63,268 bases of DNA from Candidatus Pacearchaeota archaeon (lineage in GTDB: Archaea > Nanobdellota > Nanobdellia > Pacearchaeales > GW2011-AR1). Shown here piece by piece: positions 32,319 to 46,808 of this stretch; position 1 is the stretch's first letter; every line of letters begins with the position of its first letter. The translations under genes and the position numbers were made by a program. A model generated the notes under the pieces. The model was given only the letters and a program-made list of their open reading frames with translations, made no database searches and had not been told where the DNA came from. Where the stretch lies: contig JBNLBP010000001.1 in assembly GCA_050302495.1 (NCBI GenBank), positions 1 to 63,268 of the forward strand, given 5' to 3'.

Positions 32319-33275
32319 ATGCCAACAAGAAAATCACCAAGAAAAGGAAGCTTGCAATTTTGGCCTCGAAAGAGGATCAACAAATTTTTGCCTAGAGTTA
32401 ACTGGAGTGCTATTAATTCTGATAAGAAATTGAAGGGATTTGTTGGATATAAGGCAGGGATGGTTTCTGTTGAAGTTAAGGATTTAACTGCCAATTCAAT
32501 GACTAAAGATAAGAAGATAATTATTCCGGCTACAGTTATTGAATGTCCTAAGATGAAAATCTTTTCGGTTAGATTCTACAAAAATGGGGTCGTTAAGAAG
32601 GATGTTTTAGCTGAACAATTCGACAAGGAACTTAAGAAAAAGGTTAAGGTTCCAAAAGAGAATAAATTGAAGCTTGATTCTGTAAAAAGTGAGAATTATG
32701 ATGATGTTTCTGTTATTGCTTATACTGTTGTTAAGAAAACAGGATTGAAGAAGAAACCAGATATGGCTGAAATTGGTATTTCAGGTTCAAGTGTTGATGA
32801 GAAATTAAGTTTTGTTAAAGAGAATTTGAATAAAGAGTTGAGTGTTACGGATTTATTCGCTTCAGGAGATTTAGTTGACTTTAGAGGTTTAACTAAAGGT
32901 AAAGGTCTTGTTGGTCCTGTAAAGAGATTTGGAATTACATTAAAAGCTCATAAGTCGGAGAAAGGTGTTAGAAGACCAGGTAATGTTGGTCCGTGGCATC
33001 CTGCAAGAGTTACTTTTAGAATCCCTATGGCAGGTCAATTAGGGAAGTTTACAAGAGTACATTATAATCAAAAAGTTATTGTAACTGGAAATGATGAAGA
33101 AGTTAAGAAATCTTTGAAAGCGATAAAGAACTATGGAAATGTTAACATGGATTATGTTATTGTTTCTGGTTCAGTTCAAGGTCCAGCAAAGAGACAAGTG
33201 TTTATTACTGCTCCTTTGAGAAAAAGTAAAATGTCTGCAAAGAAGAATTATGAATTCGGGAGAATATTGAGATAA
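32319..33275 (+). CDS. rpl3: ribosomal protein L3 (uL3)
   Basis: MPTRKSPRKGSLQFWPRKR... and FVGYKAGMVSV match uL3. Confidence 0.9.
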   Translation: MPTRKSPRKGSLQFWPRKRINKFLPRVNWSAINSDKKLKGFVGYKAGMVSVEVKDLTANSMTKDKKIIIPATVIECPKMKIFSVRFYKNGVVKKDVLAEQFDKELKKKVKVPKENKLKLDSVKSENYDDVSVIAYTVVKKTGLKKKPDMAEIGISGSSVDEKLSFVKENLNKELSVTDLFASGDLVDFRGLTKGKGLVGPVKRFGITLKAHKSEKGVRRPGNVGPWHPARVTFRIPMAGQLGKFTRVHYNQKVIVTGNDEEVKKSLKAIKNYGNVNMDYVIVSGSVQGPAKRQVFITAPLRKSKMSAKKNYEFGRILR

Positions 33276-33276
33276 A

Positions 33277-33522
33277 ATGGATATTGGAGAATCAATGGCG
33301 AAGAGAAAAATGATTGAAGAATTTAAGAAGTTAGAAATTGTAGCAGAAGCATTTTCTGAGGTTAAGGGGAATGTTGCTAAAGACAAAGATCTTGGGATGA
33401 GGATTGATGAAACAACAGAATTTCATTATAATATTAAAACAAATTATGAAGAAGCAAAGGGAAAATTCGTTGGAGAAGATGGAATGCAATATGCTTTTGA
33501 AATAAGGAGATATAACGATTAA
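33277..33522 (+). CDS. small hypothetical protein inserted between L3 and L4 (YegP/DUF1508-like motif)
   Basis: 81 aa; 1-nt spacers to both neighbours; motif FHYNIKTNYEEAKGKFVGEDGMQYAFEIRRY. Confidence 0.55.
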   Translation: MDIGESMAKRKMIEEFKKLEIVAEAFSEVKGNVAKDKDLGMRIDETTEFHYNIKTNYEEAKGKFVGEDGMQYAFEIRRYND

Positions 33523-33523
33523 A

Positions 33524-34363
33524 ATGAAAACTAAAACATACGATTTAACAGGGAAAGAAAAAGCAGAAATTGCATTACCCAAAGAATTTAGTTCTAAGGT
33601 AAGAGAAGATATTGTTTCTAAAGTTCTTGAAGCTGCAAAGAAACATCAACCTTACTCTCCAAGTCCTGTTGCAGGAAAACAACATTCTGCCAAAGGAAAG
33701 ATTGTACATAGAAGACATGTTTGGAGAAGTGGTTATGGTAGAGGAGCATCAAGAGTACCAAGAAAAATATTCTCACAGAAAGGTTCAAGATTTAATTGGG
33801 AAGCTGCAGAAGTTCCATTCGCAAGAGGCGGTATGAGAGCTCACCCTCCAAAGATAGAACACTTCTTAAAAGAACTTAAGATCAATAAGAAAGAATTAAA
33901 GATTGCTTTTGTATCTGCATTGAGTGCAACAGCTTCTGAAAAATATGTTGTTGATAAATATGCTACAGTAAATAAATTGAATAAAAAAGTGCCATTCATC
34001 TTAACTCTTGGAAATACTGAAAACTTGAAAGTTAAAGATTTACTTAATGGTTTGAAAGGTATGCTTGGAGAAGAACTTTACAATATTGCAATAAAGAAAA
34101 AATCAATTAGGGCTGGAAAAGGAACAATGAGAGGTAGAAAATACAAATCAAATGCAGGTATGCTTTTAGTTGTTGGAAAAGATGAAATTGGAAAAGTAAA
34201 AACTAAAATGTTTGAAGTTGTTTCGGCTGGAGAACTTGGAGTTACAGATCTTGCCCGAGGAGGATTAGGAAGATTAACTGTTTATACTGAAAATTCTGTT
34301 AAAGAATTAGAAAATAAGTTTAATGGTAAAACTGAAAAGAAAGTGGAGGAAAAGAAAAAATGA
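33524..34363 (+). CDS. rpl4: ribosomal protein L4 (uL4)
   Basis: 279 aa; HRRHVWRSGYGRGASRVPR typical of uL4. Confidence 0.9.
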   Translation: MKTKTYDLTGKEKAEIALPKEFSSKVREDIVSKVLEAAKKHQPYSPSPVAGKQHSAKGKIVHRRHVWRSGYGRGASRVPRKIFSQKGSRFNWEAAEVPFARGGMRAHPPKIEHFLKELKINKKELKIAFVSALSATASEKYVVDKYATVNKLNKKVPFILTLGNTENLKVKDLLNGLKGMLGEELYNIAIKKKSIRAGKGTMRGRKYKSNAGMLLVVGKDEIGKVKTKMFEVVSAGELGVTDLARGGLGRLTVYTENSVKELENKFNGKTEKKVEEKKK

Positions 34364-34692
34364 ATAGTGTAGAAATTAAAGTTGTTGAAAATTGGGAAAA
34401 ACCTGAAGTTTTCAGGACTTTAAAAGAAAAAGATTTGATAAGTGATAAAGAAGTTGTATTTGAATCCTTCAAGTTGAGAGGAGAAGGAACTTCTTTAATT
34501 CATACGCTCCAGAGAGTCAAGCCAGGAATTGTGAAGGTTAAAAAATATTATTTTGAATCAGGTAAATTGAGCAGTAACGCAGGAGTGGATTATTGGACCA
34601 ATTCACTGGATATAGGATATAATCCAGAAGCAAAATCAGATCAAATACTTTATGATGCAGAAGATAAATTCCTAAGAGAGGCAGGATTATGA
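34360..34692 (+). CDS. small hypothetical protein inserted between L4 and L23
   Basis: 110 aa; ATGA overlaps at both ends; motif KKYYFESGKLSSNAGVDYWTNSLDIGY. Confidence 0.55.
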   Translation: MNSVEIKVVENWEKPEVFRTLKEKDLISDKEVVFESFKLRGEGTSLIHTLQRVKPGIVKVKKYYFESGKLSSNAGVDYWTNSLDIGYNPEAKSDQILYDAEDKFLREAGL

Positions 34693-34925
34693 GACCAATA
34701 GCAACTGAAAAAGCAGTAATGAAAATTGAAGCAGAGAATGTAATGACCTTTGAATTTGATAAAAGAATGAATAAAGAGGACATTAAGAAAGAAATTGAAG
34801 AGCTTTTAGATGTTAAAGTTGATTCGGTTAAAACGCAAATAAGAAAGAACAAGAAAATTGTTTACGCTAAATTAAATAAGAAGAACCTTGCAATTGATCT
34901 TGCAACTAAATTAGGAATGATGTAA
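34689..34925 (+). CDS. rpl23: ribosomal protein L23 (uL23)
   Basis: 78 aa; typical uL23 size and basic beta-rich sequence. Confidence 0.85.
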   Translation: MRPIATEKAVMKIEAENVMTFEFDKRMNKEDIKKEIEELLDVKVDSVKTQIRKNKKIVYAKLNKKNLAIDLATKLGMM

Positions 34926-34926
34926 A

Positions 34927-35625
34927 ATGGGAAAGAGAATAATACAACAGGCACGGGGAAAGGGAAGTTCAACTTATAGAGTTAAGAGAAAAGCTTTCAG
35001 TCACAAAATCCAATATCCAAGAGGATTAACTGGAGAAGGAAGAATTGTAAAGTTATTCTTAACTGGTGGACATAGTGCTCCGCTTGCAAAGATAAACTGG
35101 TCTGGAGAGAGTTTTTATGTTCCTGCATTCAAAGGAATGGTTCAAGGAGAGAAGATTAATTTTGATTCAAAAGAAATTGTTAAAGGAAGTATCCTTGAGT
35201 TAGGAGATATTCCACTTAAGACAAAGATATTTTGCATTGAATCGAGACCTGGAGATGGTGGAAAGTTCATAAAGACTGCAGGAAGTTCTGCAGAAGTTGT
35301 TAGAAGGGTCGGCAAAAATGTTCATGTATTAATGCCGTCGAAAAAAGAAAAACCTTTTAACCCGAAATGTCGGGCTATTATTGGTGAAGCTGCTGGTCAT
35401 GGTAGAACAGACAAACCAATAATGAAAGCTGGAAAGCAACATCATATTAAGAAAGCAAAAAGTAAATTATGGCCAAGAACAGGTGCATTGAAAGTTAATG
35501 CTATCGATCATCCTTTCGGTTCAGGTAGAGGAAAGAACCCTAAGAGCAAGATTGCAAAGAGAAATTCAGCTCCTGGTCAAAAGGTTGGTTTATTGAGACC
35601 AAGAAGGACAGGTAAGAGAAAGTAA
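34927..35625 (+). CDS. rpl2: ribosomal protein L2 (uL2)
   Basis: 232 aa; GRNSAPGQKVGLLRPRRTG and conserved His region match uL2. Confidence 0.9.
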   Translation: MGKRIIQQARGKGSSTYRVKRKAFSHKIQYPRGLTGEGRIVKLFLTGGHSAPLAKINWSGESFYVPAFKGMVQGEKINFDSKEIVKGSILELGDIPLKTKIFCIESRPGDGGKFIKTAGSSAEVVRRVGKNVHVLMPSKKEKPFNPKCRAIIGEAAGHGRTDKPIMKAGKQHHIKKAKSKLWPRTGALKVNAIDHPFGSGRGKNPKSKIAKRNSAPGQKVGLLRPRRTGKRK

Positions 35626-35626
35626 A

Positions 35627-35995
35627 ATGGAAATGAAATTACAAACAACTGGAATAAAGTATGAAAATCTAGTTGGAAAAGGATTAGAACTTTTTTGTGA
35701 AAGTGCGGTCAATAAAGATGAAAATGTTGTGGGAAGGTATCTTCCTGGAATTGAGGGACAAGAGATAACCTATTTAGGAAATTTAGGACATAGATTCGGA
35801 GAAAGAGATTTATTTGGATTTGAAGAAGACAATAAATTGACTGTCCTTGTTGGAAACATAAAAGACATTACTGGAAACAGGGCAACGTTAAGCACCTTTG
35901 TTCAAAGCATTTCCCCAAATTTTTACGGAACTGAAAATTTGAGTGATGAGATTTTAAAACAATGCAAAGAGATTTTGTCAGGAGTAAAAGAATAA
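35627..35995 (+). CDS. small hypothetical protein inserted between L2 and S19
   Basis: 122 aa; 1-nt spacers on both sides; Gly-rich, no TM. Confidence 0.5.
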   Translation: MEMKLQTTGIKYENLVGKGLELFCESAVNKDENVVGRYLPGIEGQEITYLGNLGHRFGERDLFGFEEDNKLTVLVGNIKDITGNRATLSTFVQSISPNFYGTENLSDEILKQCKEILSGVKE

Positions 35996-35996
35996 A

Positions 35997-36401
35997 ATGG
36001 TAGATATAGGATCACAAAAGAAACAATTCAAGTATCGAGGCAAAGATATTGAAGAGTTGAAGGCTTTAGATACTCGAGAGGTTGCAAAATACCTTGATTC
36101 GAGAGCTAGAAGAACTGTACTTAGAAACTTCCAAGAAATTGAGGATTTCCTTCAGAGAGCTAAGAGAAAACAATCAAAGAATAAGAAGATTAAAACTCAT
36201 AAGAGAAAATTGATAGTTGTTCCTCAAATGGTTGGAATGCAAATCCAAGTACATAACGGAAGAATGTTTATTCCAATTGAGGTTGTCCCGGAGATGATCG
36301 GACATTATTTGGGAGAATTTTCATTAACAAGGGCAAAAGCTTCACATAGTAAATCAGGAGTTGGTGCTACTAAGGGTAGTAGAGCCAAATCCAAGAAGTA
36401 A
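35997..36401 (+). CDS. rps19: ribosomal protein S19 (uS19)
   Basis: 134 aa; HNGRMFIPIEVVPEMIGHYLGEFSLTR matches uS19. Confidence 0.9.
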   Translation: MVDIGSQKKQFKYRGKDIEELKALDTREVAKYLDSRARRTVLRNFQEIEDFLQRAKRKQSKNKKIKTHKRKLIVVPQMVGMQIQVHNGRMFIPIEVVPEMIGHYLGEFSLTRAKASHSKSGVGATKGSRAKSKK

Positions 36402-36406
36402 GTAAA

Positions 36407-37018
36407 ATGACAGAAAAACAATACGCTCCAAGTGCTAAAGAAAAGAAGATGTCTACAAAGAAAGTAGAATCCCCAGTAGCAGAAGCTCCTAAAAAGGTTG
36501 AAGCTAAAGAAAATAAAACTGAAGAGAAAAAAGTTGAAGAAAAGAAAACAGAAGTAAAGCAACCTGTTAAAGTTACAAAAGTTAAGAAAGATCTTGCTGT
36601 AGTTAATGCAAACAATTCAAAAGTTTCATTAAAATATGCAATAAGCATTTGTAAATTCATTAAAGGCAAAAGAATTGGCGATGCGATAAGAGATTTAGAA
36701 GCAGTTGTTGTTAAGAAAAAGGCAGTTCCAATGACTGGAGAGTATGCGCATAAGAAAAGTGTAAAGAAATATGCATCAGGTGCTGGAAAATACCCTGTTA
36801 ATGCTGCAAAGGCTTTCCTTGTGTTGGTTAAAAGCCTTTTAGGAAATGCTAATGCAAATGACATAAATGAACCTGTAATCACTGAATGTATTGCAAACAA
36901 AGCCCCCAAACCAATGGGAAGATTTGGAAGATGGGAAAGAAAAAGATGCCACATCAAATTGGTTGCAAGAGAAATTAAAGTTAAAGAGAATAAAGCTAAG
37001 ACAGAGGAAAAGAAATAA
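36407..37018 (+). CDS. rpl22: ribosomal protein L22 (uL22) with ~55-aa Lys/Glu-rich N-terminal extension
   Basis: C-terminal 150 aa match uL22; N-terminal KKVEAKENKTEEKKVEEKK low-complexity extension. Confidence 0.85.
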   Translation: MTEKQYAPSAKEKKMSTKKVESPVAEAPKKVEAKENKTEEKKVEEKKTEVKQPVKVTKVKKDLAVVNANNSKVSLKYAISICKFIKGKRIGDAIRDLEAVVVKKKAVPMTGEYAHKKSVKKYASGAGKYPVNAAKAFLVLVKSLLGNANANDINEPVITECIANKAPKPMGRFGRWERKRCHIKLVAREIKVKENKAKTEEKK

Positions 37019-37019
37019 A

Positions 37020-37712
37020 ATGGAAGAAAAACAAACTGTAAAATTCAAGAAGGAAGACTTTGCTATAAAGGAAATCATAAGAAAGACAATTGGAAAGGGA
37101 AAGATGAGCAGAGTTAGAATTGAATATACTCCGGTTGGAGAAAAAGTAATAATCTCCACAGATAAACCAGGTTTGGTTATTGGAAGGGGTGGAGAGAGTT
37201 TGAACGAATTAAGTGATATGCTTAGAAAGAATTTCAAATTCCAAAATTTACATATTGAAATTGAAGAAATAAAAGAACCTGAATTTGACTCTCAAACTAT
37301 TGCAGATGAGATTGCTTTAGGTTTAGAGAGAGCTGGACCATTAAAGTTCAAGGTTATTGCTTACAGAACACTTGAGAAAGTGATGAAAGCGGGAGCATTA
37401 GGTTGTGAAATAAGATTAAGCGGAAAACTTCCAAGTTCAAGAGCTAAGACATGGAGATTCGCTCAAGGATATTTAAAGAAAACAGGAGACTCTGCAAAGG
37501 TTGTAAGTCGTGCTCAAGCAAGAGCTGAGACTAAGCCGGGAACTGTGGGAGTTAAGGTTAGTATATTATCACCGCATGCAATATTGAAAGATAGAATAAA
37601 GATCAACGAAGATTTGATAAACCAGTTGAAAGAAAACGCTGAAAAATTAAATGAAGTTCCAGAGAAGAAAACTAAGAAAAAAGCTAAGACTGCTAAGGAG
37701 AGTAAAAAATGA
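37020..37712 (+). CDS. rps3: ribosomal protein S3 (uS3)
   Basis: Start at ATG 37020 directly after the L22 stop (the 36891 start overlaps L22); KH motif VIGRGGESLNEL; Lys-rich C-tail. Confidence 0.9.
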   Translation: MEEKQTVKFKKEDFAIKEIIRKTIGKGKMSRVRIEYTPVGEKVIISTDKPGLVIGRGGESLNELSDMLRKNFKFQNLHIEIEEIKEPEFDSQTIADEIALGLERAGPLKFKVIAYRTLEKVMKAGALGCEIRLSGKLPSSRAKTWRFAQGYLKKTGDSAKVVSRAQARAETKPGTVGVKVSILSPHAILKDRIKINEDLINQLKENAEKLNEVPEKKTKKKAKTAKESKK

Positions 37713-37903
37713 AACACTCAGAAGTAAAGAAATTAAGTAAGACAGACAGAGATAAGAAATTAAAAGAACTAAAGTTGGAATTAGTTAAAGAAAACGTATC
37801 AAAGCAAGGCGGAAATAAATCTGCTAAAATAAGAAAAATAATCGCAAGAATACACACACTCAACAACATGGAAAATAAACCCAAGGAGTTGAATAACAAA
37901 TAA
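37709..37903 (+). CDS. rpl29: ribosomal protein L29 (uL29)
   Basis: 64 aa helical, KLKELKLELVK pattern; ATGA overlap with S3. Confidence 0.8.
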   Translation: MKHSEVKKLSKTDRDKKLKELKLELVKENVSKQGGNKSAKIRKIIARIHTLNNMENKPKELNNK

Positions 37904-37907
37904 AACA

Positions 37908-38207
37908 ATGGAAATAGATCCAAAAACAGGATTGCCAGTTCAGGCAATGGAGTGGGAAGACCTTGCAAAGGGTTCCCAAAAAATACGGGTAACGACCGAT
38001 AAAAAAAGATACGGAAAGATCGTTACTCTAGTGAGTGGTTTCGACAAAGGAATCGACATAAAGAAAACCGCAAAGGCATTGAAGAATGAACTTGCGTGTG
38101 GCGGGACCTTTAAGGACGATGCAGTTGAACTGCAAGGAGACCACACAAAGAAAGTAAAGCAAGTCCTTGTAAAAATGGGATTTGACGAAAGCTCCATAGA
38201 AGACTGA
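37908..38207 (+). CDS. sui1: translation initiation factor SUI1 (aSUI1/eIF1)
   Basis: 99 aa; IRVTTDKKRYGKIVTLVSGF...LACGGT matches the SUI1 fold; canonical position after L29. Confidence 0.8.
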   Translation: MEIDPKTGLPVQAMEWEDLAKGSQKIRVTTDKKRYGKIVTLVSGFDKGIDIKKTAKALKNELACGGTFKDDAVELQGDHTKKVKQVLVKMGFDESSIED

Positions 38208-38225
38208 AGAGGTGAAAAATAAAAA

Positions 38226-38570
38226 ATGGAAAGTAAGAAAATGAAAAAAACAGAAGTAAAAGAATCAAAAATAGTTGGAACTGAAAAGAGTATAAACCCA
38301 AGAGGAAAGATCTTCGAGGGAGTTGTAACAGCAAAGTTCCACAAGAGAATAACAATCGAATTCGAAAGAATGGTTTATATTAGAAAGTATGAAAGATATG
38401 CAAAGTCGAAGACAAAAATCCATGCAAGACTCCCAGTTTCAATGGAAAACGAAGTTAATGTTGGAGATTTGATAAGAGTTCAAGAGTGTAGACCTTTAAG
38501 TAAGATAATCCATTTCATCGTGGTTAAGAAATTAAAAGATGCTTCAGAAATTTTAGGAGGAAAGAAATAA
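38226..38570 (+). CDS. rps17: ribosomal protein S17 (uS17)
   Basis: 114 aa; GKIFEGVVTAKFHKRITIEFERMVYIRKYERY matches uS17. Confidence 0.9.
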   Translation: MESKKMKKTEVKESKIVGTEKSINPRGKIFEGVVTAKFHKRITIEFERMVYIRKYERYAKSKTKIHARLPVSMENEVNVGDLIRVQECRPLSKIIHFIVVKKLKDASEILGGKK

Positions 38571-38571
38571 G

Positions 38572-38973
38572 ATGAAAGCAATAAGTTCAAGAGCTACAGA
38601 AGGATTGAATTTGGGGGCAATAATGGTTGCTGCAGACAATAGTGGGGCTAAAGTTGTAAAATTAGTTTCGGTTAAGAAAGCTAAAGCTAAGAAGGGAAAA
38701 CAAGTTGCTGGAAAGATTGCTGACTGGGTTAAAGTATCCGTAAGAAAAGGTGTTCCAGATATGAAAGGAAAAGTGTTTGATGCAGTAATAGTTAGACAGA
38801 AAAAACCATGGAGAAGGAATACGGGGGAGAGAGTTGCATTTGAAGATAACGCTGTTGCAATCTTGAAAGACGATAAAGGTAATCCGAAAGGAACTCAAAT
38901 TAAAGGACCAATTGCAAGGGAGGTTCAGGAGCGATGGCAATCTGTTGCTAAAATAGCTCAAACTGTTTATTAA
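38572..38973 (+). CDS. rpl14: ribosomal protein L14 (uL14)
   Basis: 133 aa; LNLGAIMVAADNSGAK matches uL14. Confidence 0.9.
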   Translation: MKAISSRATEGLNLGAIMVAADNSGAKVVKLVSVKKAKAKKGKQVAGKIADWVKVSVRKGVPDMKGKVFDAVIVRQKKPWRRNTGERVAFEDNAVAILKDDKGNPKGTQIKGPIAREVQERWQSVAKIAQTVY

Positions 38974-38974
38974 A

Positions 38975-39472
38975 ATGAAGAACAAATTTTCAACAAAATG
39001 GAAGGCAAGTAAGAGACCTTCAAAGCAGAGAAAGTATTTAGCAAATGCTCCTTTACATATAAAGGCAAAACTAGTTAGCGTAAATCTTGCAAAACCTCTT
39101 AGAAAGACTTCAGAAAAGAGAAATGTTCCAGTAAGAAAGGATGACAAGGTAAAGATTATGAGAGGTAAATTCAAAGGGAAAGAAGGAAAGGTTTTGAGTG
39201 TAAGTACAAAATATTCAAAAGTAATTGTCGAAGGAATAACAATCAAGAAAATGGATGGTTCACAAGCAAATGTTCCATTAAAACCTTCAAACTTACAGAT
39301 AATTGAGATGACAGATAGAAAACAAAAAGCAGTTTCTGAGAAGAAGACTGAAGTAAAAAAAAGAGTCTCTGAAACAAAGTCTCAGGACTCATCCGCTGTA
39401 GCGACGTCGAACGAAACACCTAAAAAGGAAGTTAAAGAAGTAAAAGATAAAGGTAAGGAGAATAAAAAATGA
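38975..39472 (+). CDS. rpl24: ribosomal protein L24 (uL24) with Lys-rich C-terminal extension
   Basis: KOW motif KDDKVKIMRGKFKGKEGKV; ~50 extra C-terminal residues. Confidence 0.85.
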   Translation: MKNKFSTKWKASKRPSKQRKYLANAPLHIKAKLVSVNLAKPLRKTSEKRNVPVRKDDKVKIMRGKFKGKEGKVLSVSTKYSKVIVEGITIKKMDGSQANVPLKPSNLQIIEMTDRKQKAVSEKKTEVKKRVSETKSQDSSAVATSNETPKKEVKEVKDKGKENKK

Positions 39473-40119
39473 AACATCTAAAGAGAGAAGTAGTACCAAA
39501 GAGTTGGCCAGTTCCAAGGAAAGGAACAACTTTTGTAGTTAGATCTAACTCAAATCCTGAAAAGGGTGTTCCAATGTTGATATTCCTTAGAGATATGGTA
39601 AAGGTTTCTCAAAATAGAAAAGAAGTGAAGAGAGCTTTAGTTAACAAGAATATTCTAATTAATGGAAAATACGTTTCAGATGAGAAAAACGCAGTTGTAT
39701 TACTTGATGTTGTTACAATTGTTCCATCAAAGAAATATTTCGTTCTTGATTTAACAGAAAACGGAAAGTTCGTTGCTAGAGAAATATCTGAGAAAGAGTC
39801 AATGAATAAAGTTTCAAAGATTACCGGAAAGAAATCTCTAAGAGGGAAGAAAACTCAAATTAATTTGATAGACGGAAGAAATTTCATCTCAAATGTAAAA
39901 TGTGTAGTAGGAGATTCTGTTTTGATTGATTTCAAAGGAAATAAAATTGAGAAATGTGTTCCATTGAAAGATAAAGCGAAAGTAATTATTTTTGCAGGAA
40001 AACACGCAGGAATGAAAGGAGAAATAGAAAAGATTGACGAGGAAAGAAAGATGGCTTCAGTGTCTTCAAATGGAGAAAAAATAAATGTTCTTGTTGAACA
40101 ACTAATGGTAACAGAATAA
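39469..40119 (+). CDS. rps4e: ribosomal protein S4e (eS4)
   Basis: 216 aa; MKHLKREVVPKSWPVPRKGTTFVV matches eS4. Confidence 0.9.
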   Translation: MKHLKREVVPKSWPVPRKGTTFVVRSNSNPEKGVPMLIFLRDMVKVSQNRKEVKRALVNKNILINGKYVSDEKNAVVLLDVVTIVPSKKYFVLDLTENGKFVAREISEKESMNKVSKITGKKSLRGKKTQINLIDGRNFISNVKCVVGDSVLIDFKGNKIEKCVPLKDKAKVIIFAGKHAGMKGEIEKIDEERKMASVSSNGEKINVLVEQLMVTE

Positions 40120-40120
40120 A

Positions 40121-40639
40121 ATGGCAGAAGAAAAAACTGAAAAAGTAAACCCTATGAATGAGGTTAAAATTGAAAAGGTAGTTTTAAGCATAGGTGGGAC
40201 TGGAGATTATTTGGATAGAGGTTACAGATTGTTGAAATATCTTACAGGAAAGAATCCTATGAAGACAAAGGCTCAGAAAAGAATTCCAGCATGGGGGGTT
40301 AGACCTGGTTTGGAAGTTGGAGCAACAGTAACATTAAGGAAAGATGCTATTGATTTTTTGAAGAGAATGTTGGTTACAATAGATAATAACTTGAAAAAGA
40401 AGCAAGTAAGTGAAAATAGTCTTTCATTTGGAATAAAAGAGTATATTGAAATACCTGATGTAGAATATCAAAGGGATATCGGTATAATGGGGTTCGATGT
40501 AACAATAACATTTAAGAGATCAGGAAGAAGAGTTAAATTAAGAAAGATAAAATCTGGAAAAGTTGGAAAAAAACAGATTATAAAGAAGGAAGAAATAGTA
40601 AAATATATGGAGGATAATTTCGGAACGGAATTTATATAA
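40121..40639 (+). CDS. rpl5: ribosomal protein L5 (uL5)
   Basis: 172 aa; NPMNEVKIEKVVLSIGGTG matches uL5. Confidence 0.9.
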   Translation: MAEEKTEKVNPMNEVKIEKVVLSIGGTGDYLDRGYRLLKYLTGKNPMKTKAQKRIPAWGVRPGLEVGATVTLRKDAIDFLKRMLVTIDNNLKKKQVSENSLSFGIKEYIEIPDVEYQRDIGIMGFDVTITFKRSGRRVKLRKIKSGKVGKKQIIKKEEIVKYMEDNFGTEFI

Positions 40640-40640
40640 A

Positions 40641-40907
40641 ATGGCAAATAAAATAACTTTAAAGAATAGGGAGAAATTGAGGGAAGAGCTTGAGAAGTTA
40701 GTTGTACAAGTTGATGAGATAAACGACTTCATGGGGCAGTTACCTCATAACAATCATGGGCAGGCAACTAGGAGCTTAAACCCTAAGAAAGGTGAATATT
40801 TAAGTCACTTTGATGGAAATAGCGAAGGCATAGTTGGAAAATATCGTTCAAAAAATGGAGAGGTTTATACTATTAGCGTATCAAAAGAATACGGAGGTGG
40901 AAAATAA
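40641..40907 (+). CDS. small hypothetical protein inserted between L5 and S14 (YegP/DUF1508-like motif)
   Basis: 88 aa; 1-nt spacers to both neighbours; N-terminal helix then GIVGKYRSKNGEVYTISVSKEY. Confidence 0.55.
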   Translation: MANKITLKNREKLREELEKLVVQVDEINDFMGQLPHNNHGQATRSLNPKKGEYLSHFDGNSEGIVGKYRSKNGEVYTISVSKEYGGGK

Positions 40908-40908
40908 A

Positions 40909-41139
40909 ATGACAGCAAGCAATTACGAAAAGATGTTGAAGCAATTAAGAAGCAAACCTGCAAAGATGCAGAGATACTTGAAGCACAATAAGCCAAAAAC
41001 TAGAACTACTGGTAAGGCTTTGAGAAGATGTGAACAGACGGGACAATTCGGAGGACACATAAAAATGTACGGATTGAACTTATGTAGACAGGCATTCAGA
41101 GAAATAGCGGAGGAATTAGGATTTAAGAAATACTCTTAA
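40909..41139 (+). CDS. rps14: ribosomal protein S14 (uS14), zinc-free variant
   Basis: Internal start MTASNYEKMLKQ... directly after the upstream stop; C-terminus YGLNLCRQAFREIAEELGFKKY matches uS14, but the CxxC pairs are RRCEQTG / LCRQAF (Zn ligands lost). Confidence 0.8.
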   Translation: MTASNYEKMLKQLRSKPAKMQRYLKHNKPKTRTTGKALRRCEQTGQFGGHIKMYGLNLCRQAFREIAEELGFKKYS

Positions 41140-41153
41140 ATTGCAAAAGTAAA

Positions 41154-41534
41154 ATGAGTCACGATGTTGTAGCAGATGGATTGAATATGTTGAGAAATGC
41201 AGCTGTAGCTGGAAAAGAAACCGTGAAGATAAATAGAATCTCAAATGTTTTGATAGAAGTTCTTAAAATAATGAAGCAAGATGGAGCAATAAAGAAATAT
41301 AAAATAGATTCTGAAGATAAATCTCTTACAGTTACAATAGACAAATTAGATGAATGTAAGGCAATAAAACCAAGATTCACTTGTGATGTTTCGCAAATAG
41401 AGAACTATAGAAGAAGATATCTTCCAGCAAGAGATGTTGGAACAATGATACTTTCTACAAACAAAGGGTTAATGACTCACAAAGAGGCAACAGAAGAAAA
41501 TATTGGAGGATGCCTAATTGCATATTTCTATTAA
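41154..41534 (+). CDS. rps8: ribosomal protein S8 (uS8)
   Basis: 126 aa; DGLNMLRNA N-terminus and C-terminal GGCLIAYFY match uS8. Confidence 0.9.
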   Translation: MSHDVVADGLNMLRNAAVAGKETVKINRISNVLIEVLKIMKQDGAIKKYKIDSEDKSLTVTIDKLDECKAIKPRFTCDVSQIENYRRRYLPARDVGTMILSTNKGLMTHKEATEENIGGCLIAYFY

Positions 41535-41535
41535 A

Positions 41536-42078
41536 ATGAAAAAACCTTTATCAAAAATAATTGAAATTCCTGAAGGAGTGGAAGTTGCTCTAGATGGAAG
41601 AGATGTTAAGGTAAAAGGCCCAGAAGGAGAGATAACTAAAGATTTTGATTTTGGGACTTTAGATATTGTTATCAAAGATGGAAAGATAGAATTAAGCCAT
41701 AAAAGTGCAACAAAGACTGAAAAGAGAACAATGAATACTTTTGCAGCGCATATACTAAACATGATTAAAGGTGTTCAAGAGAAATTCGAATATACGCTTA
41801 AGGTTGCTTCAAGCCACTTCCCTATGACTGTGAAGGTAGAAGGAAACATTGCAACAATAAAGAATTATTACGGAGAAAAAACTGATAGAAAAACAAAAAT
41901 TCCGAAAGGAGTTGAGGTAGAAGTTAACAAAGATTCAATTGTTGTTAAGTCTGTTGATAAAGAACTTGCAGGTCAGGCTGCAGCAAATTTCGAGAACGCT
42001 ACAAAAGTTAGAAATAGGGATAGAAGAATTTTCCAAGATGGAATTTACATAACTAAAAAACACGATAAAGCTATTTAA
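41536..42078 (+). CDS. rpl6: ribosomal protein L6 (uL6)
   Basis: Start MKKPLSKIIEIPEGVEV immediately after the S8 stop; two-domain uL6 pattern. Confidence 0.85.
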   Translation: MKKPLSKIIEIPEGVEVALDGRDVKVKGPEGEITKDFDFGTLDIVIKDGKIELSHKSATKTEKRTMNTFAAHILNMIKGVQEKFEYTLKVASSHFPMTVKVEGNIATIKNYYGEKTDRKTKIPKGVEVEVNKDSIVVKSVDKELAGQAAANFENATKVRNRDRRIFQDGIYITKKHDKAI

Positions 42079-42083
42079 TTAAA

Positions 42084-42488
42084 ATGACCGAAAAGAAAAA
42101 ACCAAATTTCAAGAGAAAGGACTCACACAAGTATTCTAAGCTTGGAAAGTCAAGAAAGAATAAACAGAAGTGGAAGAAACCTACTGGAAGAGATAACAAA
42201 ATGCGTGAGAAGAAGAAGGGTCATCCAGCGGTTGTTTCAATAGGGTATAAGACAAACACTTCAATAAGAGGAAAAGTGGAAGAAAAGAAACCAGTTTATG
42301 TTTACAACATCAAGGATTTGGAAAATGTAAACACAAATGAAATTGTAATTGTTGGAAATGTTGGGATGAAGAAGAAAGTAGAAATTACAAAGGTTGCAAA
42401 AGAAAAGAAAATCAAAATAAAAAACATTAATGAGAAAAAATTAATGAAGAAAGTTAAGAAAAAAACAACTAAGGAGAGTAAAAAATGA
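42084..42488 (+). CDS. rpl32e: ribosomal protein L32e (eL32)
   Basis: 134 aa; FKRKDSHKYSKLGKSRKNKQKWKKPTGRDNKMR matches eL32. Confidence 0.85.
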   Translation: MTEKKKPNFKRKDSHKYSKLGKSRKNKQKWKKPTGRDNKMREKKKGHPAVVSIGYKTNTSIRGKVEEKKPVYVYNIKDLENVNTNEIVIVGNVGMKKKVEITKVAKEKKIKIKNINEKKLMKKVKKKTTKESKK

Positions 42489-42952
42489 ATTTGAGATCAA
42501 AGAAGGAGCTAGCTGCAAGAACATTCAAGGTTGGTAAAGAAAGAATTACTTTCATTAAAGAAAGATTGGATGAAGTAAAAGAAGCTATAACTAAACAAGA
42601 TATGATTGGTTTGGAGAAAGACGGAGCAATAAAGGTAAAGGAAGTAAGTGGGAGAAAGAAGGTACATACTGTAAGAAATAGAAGCCCAGGGAACGTAAGA
42701 AAGAAGGTTAACACTAGAAAAAGGGACTATGTTATCATGACTAGAAAGCTTAGACAACACGTTAGACACCTTAAATCCAATGGAGAATTAAGCCCTGAAG
42801 AAGTTAAAGAAATAAGAAAAAGAATAAGAAACAAAGGATTTAAGAGTAAAGCACATATGAAAGAACAGATAGCAACAAAGAATTATTCCTCTGTTCAAGT
42901 ATCAGGAAAATCAAAAAATAAAAAAACTAAATCAAGTAAAAAGAAAAAATGA
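42485..42952 (+). CDS. rpl19e: ribosomal protein L19e (eL19)
   Basis: 155 aa; LRSKKELAARTFKVGKERI N-terminus typical of eL19. Confidence 0.85.
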   Translation: MNLRSKKELAARTFKVGKERITFIKERLDEVKEAITKQDMIGLEKDGAIKVKEVSGRKKVHTVRNRSPGNVRKKVNTRKRDYVIMTRKLRQHVRHLKSNGELSPEEVKEIRKRIRNKGFKSKAHMKEQIATKNYSSVQVSGKSKNKKTKSSKKKK

Positions 42953-43437
42953 AAGTACAAAAACGAAGAAGAAGAGAAAATAAGACAGACTATCTTAAGA
43001 GAATGAAGCTTCTTAAGAGCGCAAAGCCAAGAGTAGTATTCAGAAAAACAAACAAATATGTTATTGCGCAATATGTTGTTAGTGATGAAGCTAAAGATAA
43101 AGTTGTATTTGGAGTAAGTTCAAAAGATTTGTTAAAGAAAGGTTGGGATGAAAATGCTAAAGGATCTTTGAAGTCAATACCTGCAACATATTTAACAGGG
43201 TATTATGCTGGTAAAAAAATCTTGAAAGAAGGGCTTGAAACTCCAATAGTGGATTTAGGTATGATAAAAACTTTACATAAAACAAAGGTTTTTGCTTTTA
43301 TCAAAGGTTTAATTGATTCTGGAGTAGAAATTGGATCAAAAGAAGAAGCATTCCCTGAAGAAGAAAGAATAAATGGAGAAAGTTTAAAGAACAAGGTAGA
43401 CATTCAAAAAATTAAATCAAGTTTAGATAAAGAATAA
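42949..43437 (+). CDS. rpl18: ribosomal protein L18 (uL18)
   Basis: 162 aa; RRRRENKTDYLKRMKLLKS...PRVVFRKTNKYVIAQ matches uL18. Confidence 0.85.
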   Translation: MKVQKRRRRENKTDYLKRMKLLKSAKPRVVFRKTNKYVIAQYVVSDEAKDKVVFGVSSKDLLKKGWDENAKGSLKSIPATYLTGYYAGKKILKEGLETPIVDLGMIKTLHKTKVFAFIKGLIDSGVEIGSKEEAFPEEERINGESLKNKVDIQKIKSSLDKE

Positions 43438-43438
43438 A

Positions 43439-44305
43439 ATGACCGAAAAAGAACTTAATAAAAAAACTGCAGAAGCATACAAAGATAATTTGAATACTGA
43501 CGCGGAAGAAGCTACAGAGAAAATGATAAAGGATGAAGAAAATGATGAATATGCAGAAGTTCCTGAAGAAGTTTTAGATGAGAAAGAACTTAAGGAATTA
43601 AAAGAGATGGAAAAGGACACTAAGAAGCCTGGAAGGGACAGAAGAGATAGCGCTCCTGCAGAAGCATGGTCTCCTATTACAAAGTTAGGGGTTGCTGTAA
43701 AAGAAGGAACAATCAAAGATATTGATGAAATTATTGAGAAAAAAATGAAGATCCTTGAACCAGAAATAGTTGATAAATTAATACCTGTTGAATCAGATTT
43801 AATTTCTATAGGGCAATCTAAAGGTAAGTTTGGTGGTGGAAAAAGGAGAGCATGGAGACAGACTCAAAGAAAAAAGAAGGAAGGAAATGTTGCTACATTC
43901 TCAGCTATGGCCGTTATTGGCGATGGTAATGGTCATGTGGGTATTGGAACAGGAAAGTCTACAGAGACTCTTCCAGCAAGAGATAAAGCTACAAGAAAAG
44001 CTAAAATTAATGTAATAAAAATTATTAGGGGGGATGGAAGTTTCGATTCTGTTGGAGGAGGAAATACAAGTATTCCATTCAAAGTTTCAGGTCAAGCAGG
44101 AAGTGTAAGAATTACTTTAATGCCTGCTGCTCCAGGTACAGGTCTTGTTGCAGGGGATGAAATGAAGAAGATACTTAGAATTGCAGGAATAAAAGATATA
44201 TACTCAAAAACAGAAGGAAAATTGTCTACAAAGTTTAACCTTGCAAAAGCAACAATAGATGCACTTAAGAAAACAAATCCTTTGTATAAGAGGGCAAAAC
44301 AATAA
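43439..44305 (+). CDS. rps5: ribosomal protein S5 (uS5) with ~65-aa acidic N-terminal extension
   Basis: Core AEAWSPITKLG...GKFGGGKRRAW...; extra N-terminal D/E/K-rich segment. Confidence 0.85.
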   Translation: MTEKELNKKTAEAYKDNLNTDAEEATEKMIKDEENDEYAEVPEEVLDEKELKELKEMEKDTKKPGRDRRDSAPAEAWSPITKLGVAVKEGTIKDIDEIIEKKMKILEPEIVDKLIPVESDLISIGQSKGKFGGGKRRAWRQTQRKKKEGNVATFSAMAVIGDGNGHVGIGTGKSTETLPARDKATRKAKINVIKIIRGDGSFDSVGGGNTSIPFKVSGQAGSVRITLMPAAPGTGLVAGDEMKKILRIAGIKDIYSKTEGKLSTKFNLAKATIDALKKTNPLYKRAKQ

Positions 44306-44306
44306 A

Positions 44307-44669
44307 ATGAAAATCGCAGTAATAAGGATAAAAGGAATGGTTGGACTAAAAACAGACATAGCTGAGACTTTGGATAGATTAAGATTGAGAAGAAAATATG
44401 CGTGTGTGGTTATAGAAGATACACCAGAGAATTTAGGAATGATAAAGAAGGTTGGAGACTTTGTTGCACATGGCCCTATTGATGAAAAAACCTACAAAGA
44501 ATTAGTTGATAAGAGAGGAAAGAAAGATTCTGAAGGCAAACTTAAACCATTCTTTAGATTGCACCCTGCTAGAGGCGGAATGGAAACTAAAAAACACTTT
44601 GGAGTGGGTAAAGGAGTTTTAGGAAATAATAAAGATAAAATAAATGAATTAATAGGGAGGATGTTGTGA
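44307..44669 (+). CDS. rpl30: ribosomal protein L30 (uL30)
   Basis: Internal start MKIAVIRIKGMVGLK directly after the S5 stop; uL30 ferredoxin-like pattern. Confidence 0.8.
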   Translation: MKIAVIRIKGMVGLKTDIAETLDRLRLRRKYACVVIEDTPENLGMIKKVGDFVAHGPIDEKTYKELVDKRGKKDSEGKLKPFFRLHPARGGMETKKHFGVGKGVLGNNKDKINELIGRML

Positions 44670-44670
44670 A

Positions 44671-44889
44671 GTGTCCGAGTACTATAAGGGCAAAAAAATT
44701 AATGGCGAGCTTATTTGCGGAGTGAGTGATCAGGGAAACTACAATCCTATAATTACAACCGTTTCAAAGTCAGAGGACGAGAATTTAAGGAATACTTATG
44801 TTCTCAAAGAAGACATCCTTGAGTTTGTCAAGGCCGATCCGCTAACAGACAAACAAGCTAGAAATTACATAAACAAATCAAAAAGATAA
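44671..44889 (+). CDS. small hypothetical protein inserted between L30 and L15 (YegP/DUF1508-like motif), GTG start
   Basis: 72 aa; GTG start 10 nt after GGGAGG; motif YYKGKKINGELICGVSDQGNY; locally GC-richer codons. Confidence 0.5.
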   Translation: MSEYYKGKKINGELICGVSDQGNYNPIITTVSKSEDENLRNTYVLKEDILEFVKADPLTDKQARNYINKSKR

Positions 44890-44890
44890 A

Positions 44891-45382
44891 ATGGCGCAAA
44901 GAACACATAAAAGAAAAAAATCAACAAGATACCATGGAAGGAATATGGGTACTTCTAGCAATGGTTCTAGAAAAACACATAGAAGTTCAGGTAATAAAGG
45001 TGGAACGGGATTATCTGGTACTGGAAAGAGAGCAGACCATAAGAAAACATTGATAAACAAATTATACGGAAATAATTACTTTGGGAAACAAGGAATTACC
45101 TCTAAGAAGACTCAGAGAGATAAGAGATTAAGAATAACTCTTTCTCAAATAATGAATAACCTTGAAAGCTATGGAAAAAAGACTGCAAAAGGTTGGGAAA
45201 TTGATTTAAGCAAGTACAAAATACTTGGTAAAATTGAAGTTAAGGAAAAATTAATAATAAAGGCTCTTGAAGCATCAAAAGGAGCAATTGAATCGGTTAA
45301 GAAATCTGGTGGAGAGATAGTTTTGCCTGTTCCTAAAAAGAAGGTTGAAGTCAAAAGTTCCGACGATGGCAAAGAAGAATAG
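44891..45382 (+). CDS. rpl15: ribosomal protein L15 (uL15)
   Basis: 163 aa; Gly/basic-rich N-terminus TRYHGRNMGTSSNGSRKTHRSSGNKGGTG typical of uL15; precedes secY. Confidence 0.85.
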   Translation: MAQRTHKRKKSTRYHGRNMGTSSNGSRKTHRSSGNKGGTGLSGTGKRADHKKTLINKLYGNNYFGKQGITSKKTQRDKRLRITLSQIMNNLESYGKKTAKGWEIDLSKYKILGKIEVKEKLIIKALEASKGAIESVKKSGGEIVLPVPKKKVEVKSSDDGKEE

Positions 45383-45413
45383 TTTTAAAAACACTCTTTC
45401 TTAATTCTATACT

Positions 45414-46808
45414 ATGGCAAATCTTACGAAGATATTCTCTTTAATTCCTGAAGTTAGGAATCCAGATGAAAAGAAGCTAGCTTTTAATGTGAAGCTTAAG
45501 TGGACACTTGTTGTATTGATAGGATTTTTTATTTTAGCAAACATACCTTTGTTTGGTTTGACGAATAATGCTTTGGAGAGATTCCAATATTTAGCTATAA
45601 TTTTAGGGACAGATTTTGGTTCAATAATTTCTTTAGGTATTGGTCCGATCGTTATGGCTTCGATTATATTGCAGTTGTTAACGGGAGCGGGTATTTTAAA
45701 CATAAATACAAACACTGCAGAAGGAAAGAAGTTTTTCCAAGGAGTTCAGAAATTAATGGTGTTCTTCTTTATATTATTTGAAGCCACAGTTTATGTATTA
45801 ATGAAAGGTCTTGAAGCTGCCCCTGGACTTGCAGGAATAGTTATCTTCCAACTTATAATTGGAGGTATTGCGATTTACTATATGAATGAACTTTGTGAAA
45901 AATGGGGATTCGGTTCGGGAGTTAGTTTGTTCATTGCAGCGGGAGTATCTTGGAATCTATTTACTGGTGCATTCCAGTTCATAAATCAGCAAGGTAGAAA
46001 CTGTCTTGCAGATTTCTCGGGAACTGCATGTTCAGGAAAGATTTTCGTATTAATACAATCAATTGTGAATAAGTACCCTGTTGAATTTATGTCCGCACTT
46101 GGGGCTATTGTAGCAACGGTTGCTATATTTTTGTTGGTAGTTTGGGCCCAATCGCTTAAGGTAGAAATTCCTTTGAGTTTTGGAAGAATTAGAGGATATG
46201 GTGTAAAGTGGCCTTTGAGTTTCTTCTACGCTTCAGTTATCCCTGTTATTTTAACTGCTGCTTTAGTTGCAAACATACAACTATTTGGAGGGCTTTTGGA
46301 GAATTGGAGAGGTCATGCAACATTCCTAGGTCATTTCGTAAATGGTCAGGCAGTGTCCGGTTTAGGGTTCTGGCTTGGGCATACGAATTTGCTTGAATTG
46401 GCAATAAGAGGAGGATTCTTACCTAGGTTCTTAGTCCAAGGATTGACGCACATAATATTCTATACTGGACTTGCAATGTTGTTCTCGATATTTTGGGTTA
46501 AAAGTTCTGGAATGGACTCAAAAGCTCAAGCTCAAAAGATATCTTCATCAGGATTACAAGTTGCAGGTTTCAGACAAGATAACAGAGTTTTGGAAAGCAT
46601 ATTAGATAGATATATAATGCCTTTAACAGTTATGGGAGGAGCGGCAATAGGATTGCTAGCTGCTTTAACAGACTTGTTAGGTGCTATGGTTTCAGGAACA
46701 GCGATACTTTTGGTTATCATGATAATGTTCCAATTCTATCAGAGTATTGCACAACAACACATGACAGATATGAATCCTGCTATGAGGAAGTTTATGGGAA
46801 ATGCATAA
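45414..46808 (+). CDS. secY: protein translocase subunit SecY
   Basis: 464 aa, 10 TM; conserved position after L15. Confidence 0.9.
   Translation: MANLTKIFSLIPEVRNPDEKKLAFNVKLKWTLVVLIGFFILANIPLFGLTNNALERFQYLAIILGTDFGSIISLGIGPIVMASIILQLLTGAGILNINTNTAEGKKFFQGVQKLMVFFFILFEATVYVLMKGLEAAPGLAGIVIFQLIIGGIAIYYMNELCEKWGFGSGVSLFIAAGVSWNLFTGAFQFINQQGRNCLADFSGTACSGKIFVLIQSIVNKYPVEFMSALGAIVATVAIFLLVVWAQSLKVEIPLSFGRIRGYGVKWPLSFFYASVIPVILTAALVANIQLFGGLLENWRGHATFLGHFVNGQAVSGLGFWLGHTNLLELAIRGGFLPRFLVQGLTHIIFYTGLAMLFSIFWVKSSGMDSKAQAQKISSSGLQVAGFRQDNRVLESILDRYIMPLTVMGGAAIGLLAALTDLLGAMVSGTAILLVIMIMFQFYQSIAQQHMTDMNPAMRKFMGNA

Follow-up and report, generated by a model that had tools for sequence, protein, structure and literature searches.

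insE, a probable translationally coupled orphan gene at an insertion-prone junction of an archaeal ribosomal protein operon

The window analyzed here, i.e., the whole stretch of DNA under study, comprises 63,268 nucleotides (nt) of 33%-GC DNA from a Candidatus Pacearchaeota archaeon (contig JBNLBP010000001.1). On its + strand it carries a complete archaeal S10-spc-type ribosomal protein (r-protein) operon. This study concerns insE, an open reading frame (ORF) for 72 amino acids (aa) located between the L30 and L15 genes of that operon. The L30 gene ends in the codons ATA GGG AGG ATG TTG TGA, followed by a single A and then by the GTG of insE at position 44671; at the other end, one A separates the TAA of insE from the ATG of L15 at 44891. 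That is, the ORF fills the L30|L15 gap exactly. Upstream, the frame is closed off by the TAG at 44653-55; as it has no ATG, the GTG is the sole possible start. A first-pass annotation, made from the sequence alone, had described a 72-aa ORF that starts with GTG, lacks an in-frame ATG and is positioned 1 nt past the L30 stop and 10 nt past a GGGAGG element, and each of these details is borne out (Table 1). Our interpretation, which we consider probable, is that insE is a lineage-restricted orphan gene residing in a cassette-insertion hot spot of the spc operon, and that it is expressed by translational coupling.

At the base composition of the operon, a 72-codon frame would remain open with a probability of only ~0.0014. 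Homologues of the predicted protein were sought with a word-index search, a profile search and an exhaustive phmmer search of 1.84 billion cluster representatives. The word-index search returned the insE protein itself and nothing else, and phmmer revealed a single genuine relative, P0002 (72 aa, E=5e-15, 56% identity). The profile search added no homologue beyond P0001 and P0002, and the family therefore consists of these two members in ~15 billion proteins. No homologue was detected in a scan of JGI metagenomes or among GenBank phages. A match in IMG/VR (L088) was rejected: the search pattern CG.SDQGNYNP was found in an unrelated, zinc-ribbon-like phage protein of 143 aa, with a score of 32 bits that is not significant for the whole collection.

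Seven contigs, all from one other species, encode P0002, in each case between L30 and L15. The two proteins have the same length and are 55-56% identical at the amino-acid level, with a single compensated indel; the start codon of P0002 is an ATG, which aligns one codon off from the GTG of insE. Nucleotide identity at codon positions 1, 2 and 3 is 0.68, 0.70 and 0.38, respectively, and the proportions of nonsynonymous (pN) and synonymous (pS) differences are 0.31 and 0.86, the latter being saturated. The nonsynonymous divergence (dN) of insE is 0.40, versus 0.15 for L30 and L15; that is, insE evolves 2-3 times faster than its neighbors and at a rate near that of L32e (0.34). Because of the codon-position identities, the low pN relative to a saturated pS, and the compensated indel, we conclude that insE has the hallmarks of a genuine translated gene under purifying selection.

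A neighbor-joining tree of nine concatenated proteins (2,199 columns) places the window organism and the locus L082 as sisters with a bootstrap of 100/100, and L008 on the next branch, also with 100/100. Synonymous sites are saturated in all flanking genes at the split between the window organism and L082. Since the ORF is conserved in the sister at the same junction, as comparison of the L30|L15 junction across genomes demonstrates, insE evidently predates the divergence of the window organism from its sister species.

The same junction was then surveyed in 80 related loci, retrieved via SecY from metagenome-assembled genomes of Candidatus Woesearchaeota, Pacearchaeota or Nanoarchaeota (DPANN archaea; individual loci are given three-digit L numbers). 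L30 abuts L15 (-4 to +2 nt) in 34 of 67 genomes; the two genes are separated by 12-75 nt in seven, and by 163-893 nt in the remaining 26. Inserts of at least 120 nt occur at ~20 junctions of the operon, and L30|L15 is the one occupied most often. Among the genomes that are complete from S17 to L15, 26 of 46 carry at least one insert, and L008 carries eight. Nearly all of these segments are coding: 85 of 91 are covered to at least 95% by ORFs on the operon strand, versus 8 of 91 on the opposite strand, typically with a spacing of 1 nt or with ATGA/TAATG overlaps.

The content of the inserts is highly diverse. The 102 insert proteins fall into 77 clusters at a permissive phmmer threshold validated against shuffled sequences, and only ~8 of the 80 scanned contain a Pfam domain, namely MazG, 2-thiouracil desulfurase/DUF523, B3_4, DUF5680, NT5C deoxynucleotidase and nucleoside 2-deoxyribosyltransferase. 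Several of the Pfam-bearing inserts also match phage PHROGs. A single marginal PADLOC match (E=4e-4) provides no evidence for a known defense family. One and the same family may be found at different junctions: MazG-like proteins occur at L30|L15 and L32e|L19e, DUF523 at L30|L15 and L14|L24, and DUF5680 likewise at more than one site. Many sister pairs differ in junction occupancy. Within the clade of the window, L017 has a 60-aa ORF at L30|L15 and L030 a 75-nt non-coding element. The insert that L008 and L048 carry at this junction was considered as a possible homologue of insE and discarded (hhalign probability 4%); the L008 gene encodes 80 aa and is unrelated. Because the inserts in relatives are unrelated and their occupancy changes, L30|L15 is an insertion hot spot with fast turnover, of which insE is one occupant that has persisted through one speciation. 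The suggestion in the first-pass annotation that insE has a different origin from its neighbors holds in the sense that insE is an outsider among the r-protein genes: the junction is contiguous in 34 of 67 genomes, insE is found only in the window and its sister lineage, and the genes that other genomes have at this junction are unrelated to it.

Several individual loci illustrate this variability. MazG-like pyrophosphohydrolase inserts of two subtypes are present at L30|L15 in L025, L046, L059, L061 and L069, and at L32e|L19e in L031; their recurrence in distant branches and at two junctions suggests either cassette transfer or repeated capture. The S17|L14 junction of L056 (2260-2869) holds two adjoining paralogous insert ORFs of 107 and 99 aa, which indicate tandem duplication in place. 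L008 and L082 have a homologous insert at S8|L6 that is not found in the window, even though the window is nearer to L082 than L008 is; this is a case of cassette loss in the window lineage.

The first-pass annotation had also described GGGAGG as a Shine-Dalgarno (SD)-like element, and had given its position correctly. In the alignment of the junction from 67 genomes, the 3' end of L30 is conserved, and the protein always ends in ...(G/E)RML*, encoded by ...GAGGATGTTRTAA. At L30|L15 junctions without an insert, the string GAGGATGTT likewise stands ahead of L15, and the purine-rich hexamer lies ~10 nt before the L15 ATG at those junctions, just as it lies 10 nt before the insE GTG in the window. 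Because the element is present with or without an insert downstream, GGGAGG is conserved L30 coding sequence, specifying Gly-Arg, and not a feature of the insert. SD-like matches of at least 4 nt, 7-14 nt upstream of the start, are found in about half of the genes in the operon; L15 of the window has no such motif upstream.

These arrangements suggest how insE might be expressed. Runs of four or more T residues act as archaeal termination signals, and insE contains no such run. The gene would have no promoter or terminator of its own, and its expression would depend on hitchhiking on the transcript of the operon. A ribosome that has terminated at the TGA of L30 could re-initiate at the GTG 1 nt downstream, aided by the GGAGG within the last L30 codons, which at empty junctions would serve L15 instead. 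L15 would then be translated via re-initiation at TAAAATG, i.e., without an SD.

Throughout the operon (32319-45382), neighboring genes are mostly joined by the heptamer TAAAATG, i.e., a stop, one A and a start; TGAAGTG at the start of insE is an exception. The C-termini of inserts are rich in Gly and Glu, and the corresponding DNA (as in insD, where ...GGGK gives GGAGGTG) resembles SDs selected for the downstream r-protein gene. In L019 (180-221, 42 nt) and L024 (9214-9280, 67 nt), the L30|L15 gap is filled by mini-ORFs of 12 and 21 codons, respectively, which begin right after the L30 stop; even tiny inserts keep the region translated.

Table 1. Coordinates of insE, its flanking genes and related features in the window
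Feature	Position	Strand	Description
Operon span	L3 at 32319 to L15 and SecY at 46808	+	S10-spc-type r-protein operon
insA	33277..33522	+	81 aa; fills L3|L4 gap
insB	34360..34692	+	110 aa; L4|L23; ATGA overlaps on both sides
insC	35627..35995	+	122 aa; L2|S19
insD	40641..40907	+	88 aa; L5|S14; ends ...GGGK, giving GGAGGTG upstream of S14
L30 gene	44307..44669	+	120 aa; PF00327 on the called gene; tail ...IGRML*; TGA 44667-69
18-nt imperfect direct repeat, copy 1	44624..44641	+	AAATAATAAAGATAAAAT; in L30 3' region
GGGAGG hexamer	44655..44660	+	Gly-Arg codons of L30 tail; 10-nt spacer to insE GTG
insE	44671..44889	+	gene for a 72-aa orphan protein; GTG 44671-73; TAA 44887-89
Further insE peptide			NTYVLKEDILEFVK
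18-nt imperfect direct repeat, copy 2	44875..44892	+	AAATCAAAAAGATAAAAT; spans insE stop and L15 start
insE/L15 junction	44887..44893	+	TAAAATG, stop/start; heptamer common to most operon junctions
L15 gene	44891..45382	+	163 aa; PF00828; N-terminus RTHKRKKSTRYHGRN conserved with L082

The window operon contains four other inserts, insA to insD, which also fill their junctions exactly. None of the four matches a known family or resembles another, and insD is an orphan in an index of 5.8 billion proteins. When all proteins of the window were compared with the 80 related loci by tblastn, r-proteins were recovered everywhere, and none of insA to insE was. The peptide YYKGKKINGELICGVSDQGNY, which the first-pass annotation had called a shared motif, is indeed present in insE, as residues 4-24; it is not shared, given that insA to insE show no significant similarity among themselves or to the six-frame translation of the window (MAFFT and phmmer; BLASTP for insA versus insD).

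The GC content of insE at third codon positions (GC3) is 0.411, compared with a mean of 0.265 (standard deviation 0.052) for the window and of 0.24 for the operon. This value falls within the top 1.4-1.7% of 73-codon windows (binomial P=0.005). The strongest class is that of the four-fold degenerate sites, of which 9 of 24 are G or C, versus an expected fraction of ~0.11 (P=6.5e-4), and the excess is seen in every codon class. In a sliding plot, the GC3 island begins and ends at the borders of the ORF. The GC-richer codons reported for insE are therefore real, and its GC3 does differ from that of the flanking r-protein genes. Two other genes of the same operon, S14 (0.416) and SUI1 (0.42), have an equal GC3, and a GC3 at least 0.15 above the operon mean is found in 6.6% of the small r-protein genes of the relatives. 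The other four inserts in the window are ordinary in this respect (0.23-0.33), and inserts as a class are slightly poorer in GC3 than their hosts (mean -0.03). The insE orthologue, in turn, has a GC3 of 0.233 in a 34%-GC context. SUI1/aIF1 (37908-38207, between L29 and S17), which occupies the same position in 45 related loci, is the only other gene of the operon with GC-rich four-fold sites (0.33).

Because the GC3 of the orthologue is host-like and the gene predates a deep split, saturated at synonymous sites, recent acquisition of insE, as the first-pass annotation had proposed from its codons, is unsupported. Codon GC does not demonstrate such an event; the excess is a property of this allele only. 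The GC3 island at most hints at a later allele replacement from a GC-richer relative, via recombination in the conserved flanks, which would be the most economical reading other than chance. A GC-richer donor of insE was absent from all databases searched.

What kind of protein insE encodes was assessed by similarity searches and structure prediction. Pfam, NCBIfam, PHROGs and PADLOC gave nothing usable, and a sequence search of the PDB gave no match. AlphaFold2, run on the two-sequence alignment, predicts five beta-strands and a C-terminal helix, at low confidence (mean predicted local distance difference test, pLDDT, of 63). A Foldseek search of this model against the PDB returned nothing below E=1. 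Resemblances to PC4/Sub1- or PH-like folds at template-modeling (TM) scores of 0.4-0.5 were dismissed given the pLDDT. A match to the PqqD/RRE peptide chaperone was also rejected (15.6 bits versus a cut-off of 110, with no match in the orthologue). The conserved C-terminal residues are L50, F52, V53, D56-T59, K61, Q62 and R64-Y66. Over residues 46-67 (22 residues), insE aligns to helices 1-2 of the repeat in P0003, a protein with three HTH_17-like repeats (E=7e-4; hhalign probability 12%). A helix-turn-helix (HTH) DNA-binding class was nevertheless rejected, as the protein ends before a third, recognition helix could follow and Pfam reports no HTH; P0003 is a lead only. The isoelectric point (pI) of insE is 7.8, versus 9.9-10.3 for L30, L15, S14 and L29; the protein contains one conserved Cys, and its C-terminal tail is basic (NKSKR/NKIKK). 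Taken together, these data suggest a soluble, near-neutral, beta-rich product with a C-terminal helix, which is most likely a small binding or adaptor protein and not a ribosomal protein.

As to how inserts arrive, the most informative cases are L039 (8766-9491) and L035 (1934-2437), in which two or three cassettes are arranged in tandem at L30|L15. Each of these cassette ORFs ends in an in-frame copy of the L30 tail (...GRML, ...EGML, ...GGML), and a direct repeat of the 3' end of L30, 27-31 nt in length, lies on either side of the first cassette. Duplications of the end of the upstream gene also flank inserts in L031 (L32e|L19e, 23 of 24 nt) and L027 (S5|L30, 19 of 19 nt). Across 94 inserts, however, the similarity between flanks is not above that of shuffled pairings, bar a handful of clear cases; the duplication signature therefore decays or is not universal. 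At insE itself, the 3' 18-mer has a sole match in the window at up to two mismatches, which lies 29 nt before the L30 stop, with 0.12 matches expected. Being rich in A, and not in the register that a simple duplication of the target would leave, this 16/18 repeat is suggestive only. Terminal inverted repeats are absent; the one inverted pair detected has a length of 9 nt (44711/44895) and lies off the cassette ends. No integrase, transposase or integron integrase is found among the best 25 of 53 Pfam families detected in 60 other ORFs of the window. Nor is there an endonuclease domain (LAGLIDADG, GIY-YIG, HNH and others) in insE, or in the 80 insert proteins, according to Pfam and PHROGs. Two mechanisms are compatible with these observations, namely illegitimate or homologous recombination via the conserved r-protein flanks and the recurrent TAAAATG, and a dedicated, site-specific cassette system; by default, we favor the former.

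In addition to these cases, a non-coding element of 66-75 nt, with two hairpins and a second copy of AGAGGATGTTRTAA from the 3' end of L30, was observed at L30|L15 in L063 (7055-7120), L077 (5149-5214) and L030 (9396-9470). These loci belong to two separate clades, and some of the changes between them are compensatory. The element could be a miniature mobile element or the footprint of a lost cassette.

Four alternative explanations have to be weighed against the proposed one. The most radical is that the ORF is no gene at all, but a spacer that happens to be open in this frame, or a structured RNA with a regulatory role. The GTG start, the lack of an annotation name in databases and the lack of a family match could be taken in this sense. 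Yet the low probability of an open frame of this length, its exact fit to the gap and an equal-length orthologue with a coding substitution pattern all contradict it, as do 85 of 91 comparable inserts that likewise are gap-filling ORFs on the operon strand; in addition, no Rfam family matches insE, and the z-score of its RNA fold is -1.4. We regard this explanation as effectively refuted. A second proposal is that insE encodes a protein of the ribosome, or one associated with it, that is specific to this lineage (a factor for assembly or hibernation, for instance) and is made in step with the r-proteins. The location in the operon with tight translational coupling, the conservation across a deep split and the basic C-terminal tail are consistent with this notion. 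Against it stand the near-neutral pI, compared with values of ~10, the restriction of the gene to two of 68 related genomes, the occupation of the same slot by unrelated genes, including enzymes such as MazG, and the lack of a match to any r-protein profile in Pfam or NCBIfam. We therefore consider it very unlikely.

The other two alternatives concern the origin of the gene. In one, insE, or the allele in the window, would be a recent, un-ameliorated horizontal import from a GC-richer donor, possibly brought in by homologous recombination via L30 and L15. The GC3 contrast (0.41 versus 0.25), the four-fold sites and the coincidence of the island with the ORF borders argue for it, and among the 94 inserts this is the largest GC3 excess, bar one ORF that is likely spurious. 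Furthermore, vertical descent over a saturated synonymous divergence (dS) should have ameliorated both copies, and only the orthologue is host-like. The import is nonetheless unlikely in our view: the gene occupies the same site in the sister lineage, and the locus is therefore old; S14 and SUI1 reach the same GC3, and 6.6% of small native r-protein genes deviate alike; the signal comes from 73 codons only, chosen post hoc among many genes; and the databases searched contain neither a GC-richer donor nor a third homologue. The last alternative depicts insE as a selfish, non-autonomous mobile cassette, site-specific at the 3' ends of r-protein genes and mobilized in trans by a recombinase; its attachment site would be either the tail of L30, GAGGATGTTRTRA, or the generic TAAAATG found at junctions. 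The L30-tail copies in L039 and L035, the 19-31-nt direct repeats flanking several inserts, the hairpin element with its duplicated L30 end in two separate clades, the appearance of the same families at different junctions and the many sister pairs with differing occupancy all speak for such a system. It is made doubtful by the 94-insert comparison, in which most flanks are no more similar than shuffled pairings, and by insE itself, where the repeat is of low complexity and terminal inverted repeats are lacking. Moreover, the leading Pfam families listed for the window include no integrase or transposase, purifying selection on insE fits a useful gene, and homologous recombination via conserved flanks would explain the spread without dedicated machinery. 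We consider this alternative possible, and somewhat less improbable than a recent import.

Several points also weigh against our own interpretation of insE as a lineage-restricted, translationally coupled orphan gene. The sharp borders of the GC3 island are not explained by it, save by chance or by import of an allele. The selection estimates derive from a single pair of sequences with saturated dS, only two members of the family being known. Co-transcription and translational coupling are presumed from the geometry of the junctions. The designation as a binding protein is a weak guess, made from a model with a pLDDT of 63 and no structural neighbor. Lastly, insE has no clear flanking duplication, only the low-complexity 16/18 repeat.

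The arrangement may be compared with several known systems. Phage morons and hyperplastic regions consist of accessory ORFs between conserved, syntenic genes. The inserts resemble them in that unrelated small, mostly orphan ORFs on the same strand occur sporadically between genes that are adjacent in relatives, in that close relatives differ in occupancy, and in that enzymes of nucleotide metabolism (MazG, deoxynucleotidase, nucleoside deoxyribosyltransferase) are among them, as is the case for phage accessory genes. In contrast to morons, the inserts reside in the chromosome of a cellular archaeon, within an r-protein operon; they would have no promoter or terminator of their own, the spacing being 1 nt or an ATGA overlap and insE being free of T-runs; and as a class they lack an atypical composition. 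Integron cassettes are units of a single ORF without a promoter, all inserted in the same orientation downstream of a resident one. Similarly, insE lies on the + strand, with a single nucleotide separating it from the L30 stop on one side and from the L15 start on the other, and the inserts are diverse and largely orphan in content, with tandem arrays of two or three in L039 and L035 that share the same short ending. The differences are that insE has no attC-type inverted repeat, that many junctions are used instead of one attI, and that the lineage is archaeal.

Mobile ORFs of fungal or algal organelles can insert at the 3' end of a gene and thereby duplicate the segment that codes for its C-terminus, as reportedly described for atp6 of Allomyces by Paquin and colleagues in 1994. 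The in-frame ..GRML copies and the 27-31-nt L30 repeat in L039 and L035, along with the duplications in L031 and L027, are reminiscent of such ORFs; in contrast to them, neither insE nor the 80 inserts have a homing-endonuclease domain, and insE lacks a clear duplication. In prokaryotic integration hot spots, gene gain and loss are concentrated in a few intervals between conserved genes. Here, too, the conserved flanks could serve as substrates for homologous recombination, but the site is inside a normally inviolate operon, the inserts are single tiny ORFs and not islands, and translational coupling would be kept. Finally, archaeal r-protein operons have passengers such as SUI1/aIF1, RNase P Rpp29, adenylate kinase and EMC3/DUF106-like genes, which are non-r-protein genes co-transcribed with r-proteins, as insE would be. 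Those belong to recognized families and are spread over wide clades, whereas insE is found in two species and belongs to no family.

By itself, insE is an ordinary ORFan. Its setting is less ordinary: the S10-spc cluster is a textbook example of frozen gene order, and is used as such in phylogenomics and binning, and more than half of the related genomes have one to eight unrelated orphan ORFs seamlessly embedded in it, with rapid turnover between sisters. A literature search found no description of inserts in the r-protein operons of DPANN archaea. A broader, tentative reading, which we hold to be possible but doubtful, is that the r-protein operon of these organisms is a landing pad for promoterless, ORF-precise cassettes. 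These would insert with duplication of a 3'-end target, be exchanged between species and shuffled between junctions, and supply hypervariable orphan proteins at r-protein levels; the GC3 island of insE would then reflect a recent exchange of alleles between species. If this were true, the cassette proteins might perhaps serve in host interaction or virus defense. The occurrence of the inserts as such indicates that symbionts with extremely reduced genomes use strong expression signals as a nursery or parking place for new genes. The inserts could yield a comparably sampled set of young or orphan genes whose expression is suggested by their location, a natural test of how well translational coupling tolerates insertions, and a candidate for a new mechanism of cassette insertion, marked by 3'-end duplication. 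They also warn annotators that, in DPANN operons, small ORFs with a GTG or TTG start are real genes.

A related annotation problem affects L15. The public call of this gene on the Logan contig L001 (1345-1836, corresponding to 44891-45382 of the window) begins 54 nt late, as the conserved N-terminus RTHKRKKSTRYHGRN shows, and similar late calls are found in L083 and L086. Downstream of L15, the spacer to SecY is variable as well: its length is 120 nt or more in 18 of the 69 genomes, with a maximum of 3.4 kb, compared with 31 nt in the window (45383-45413). In the window, SecY is followed by an EMC3-like gene.

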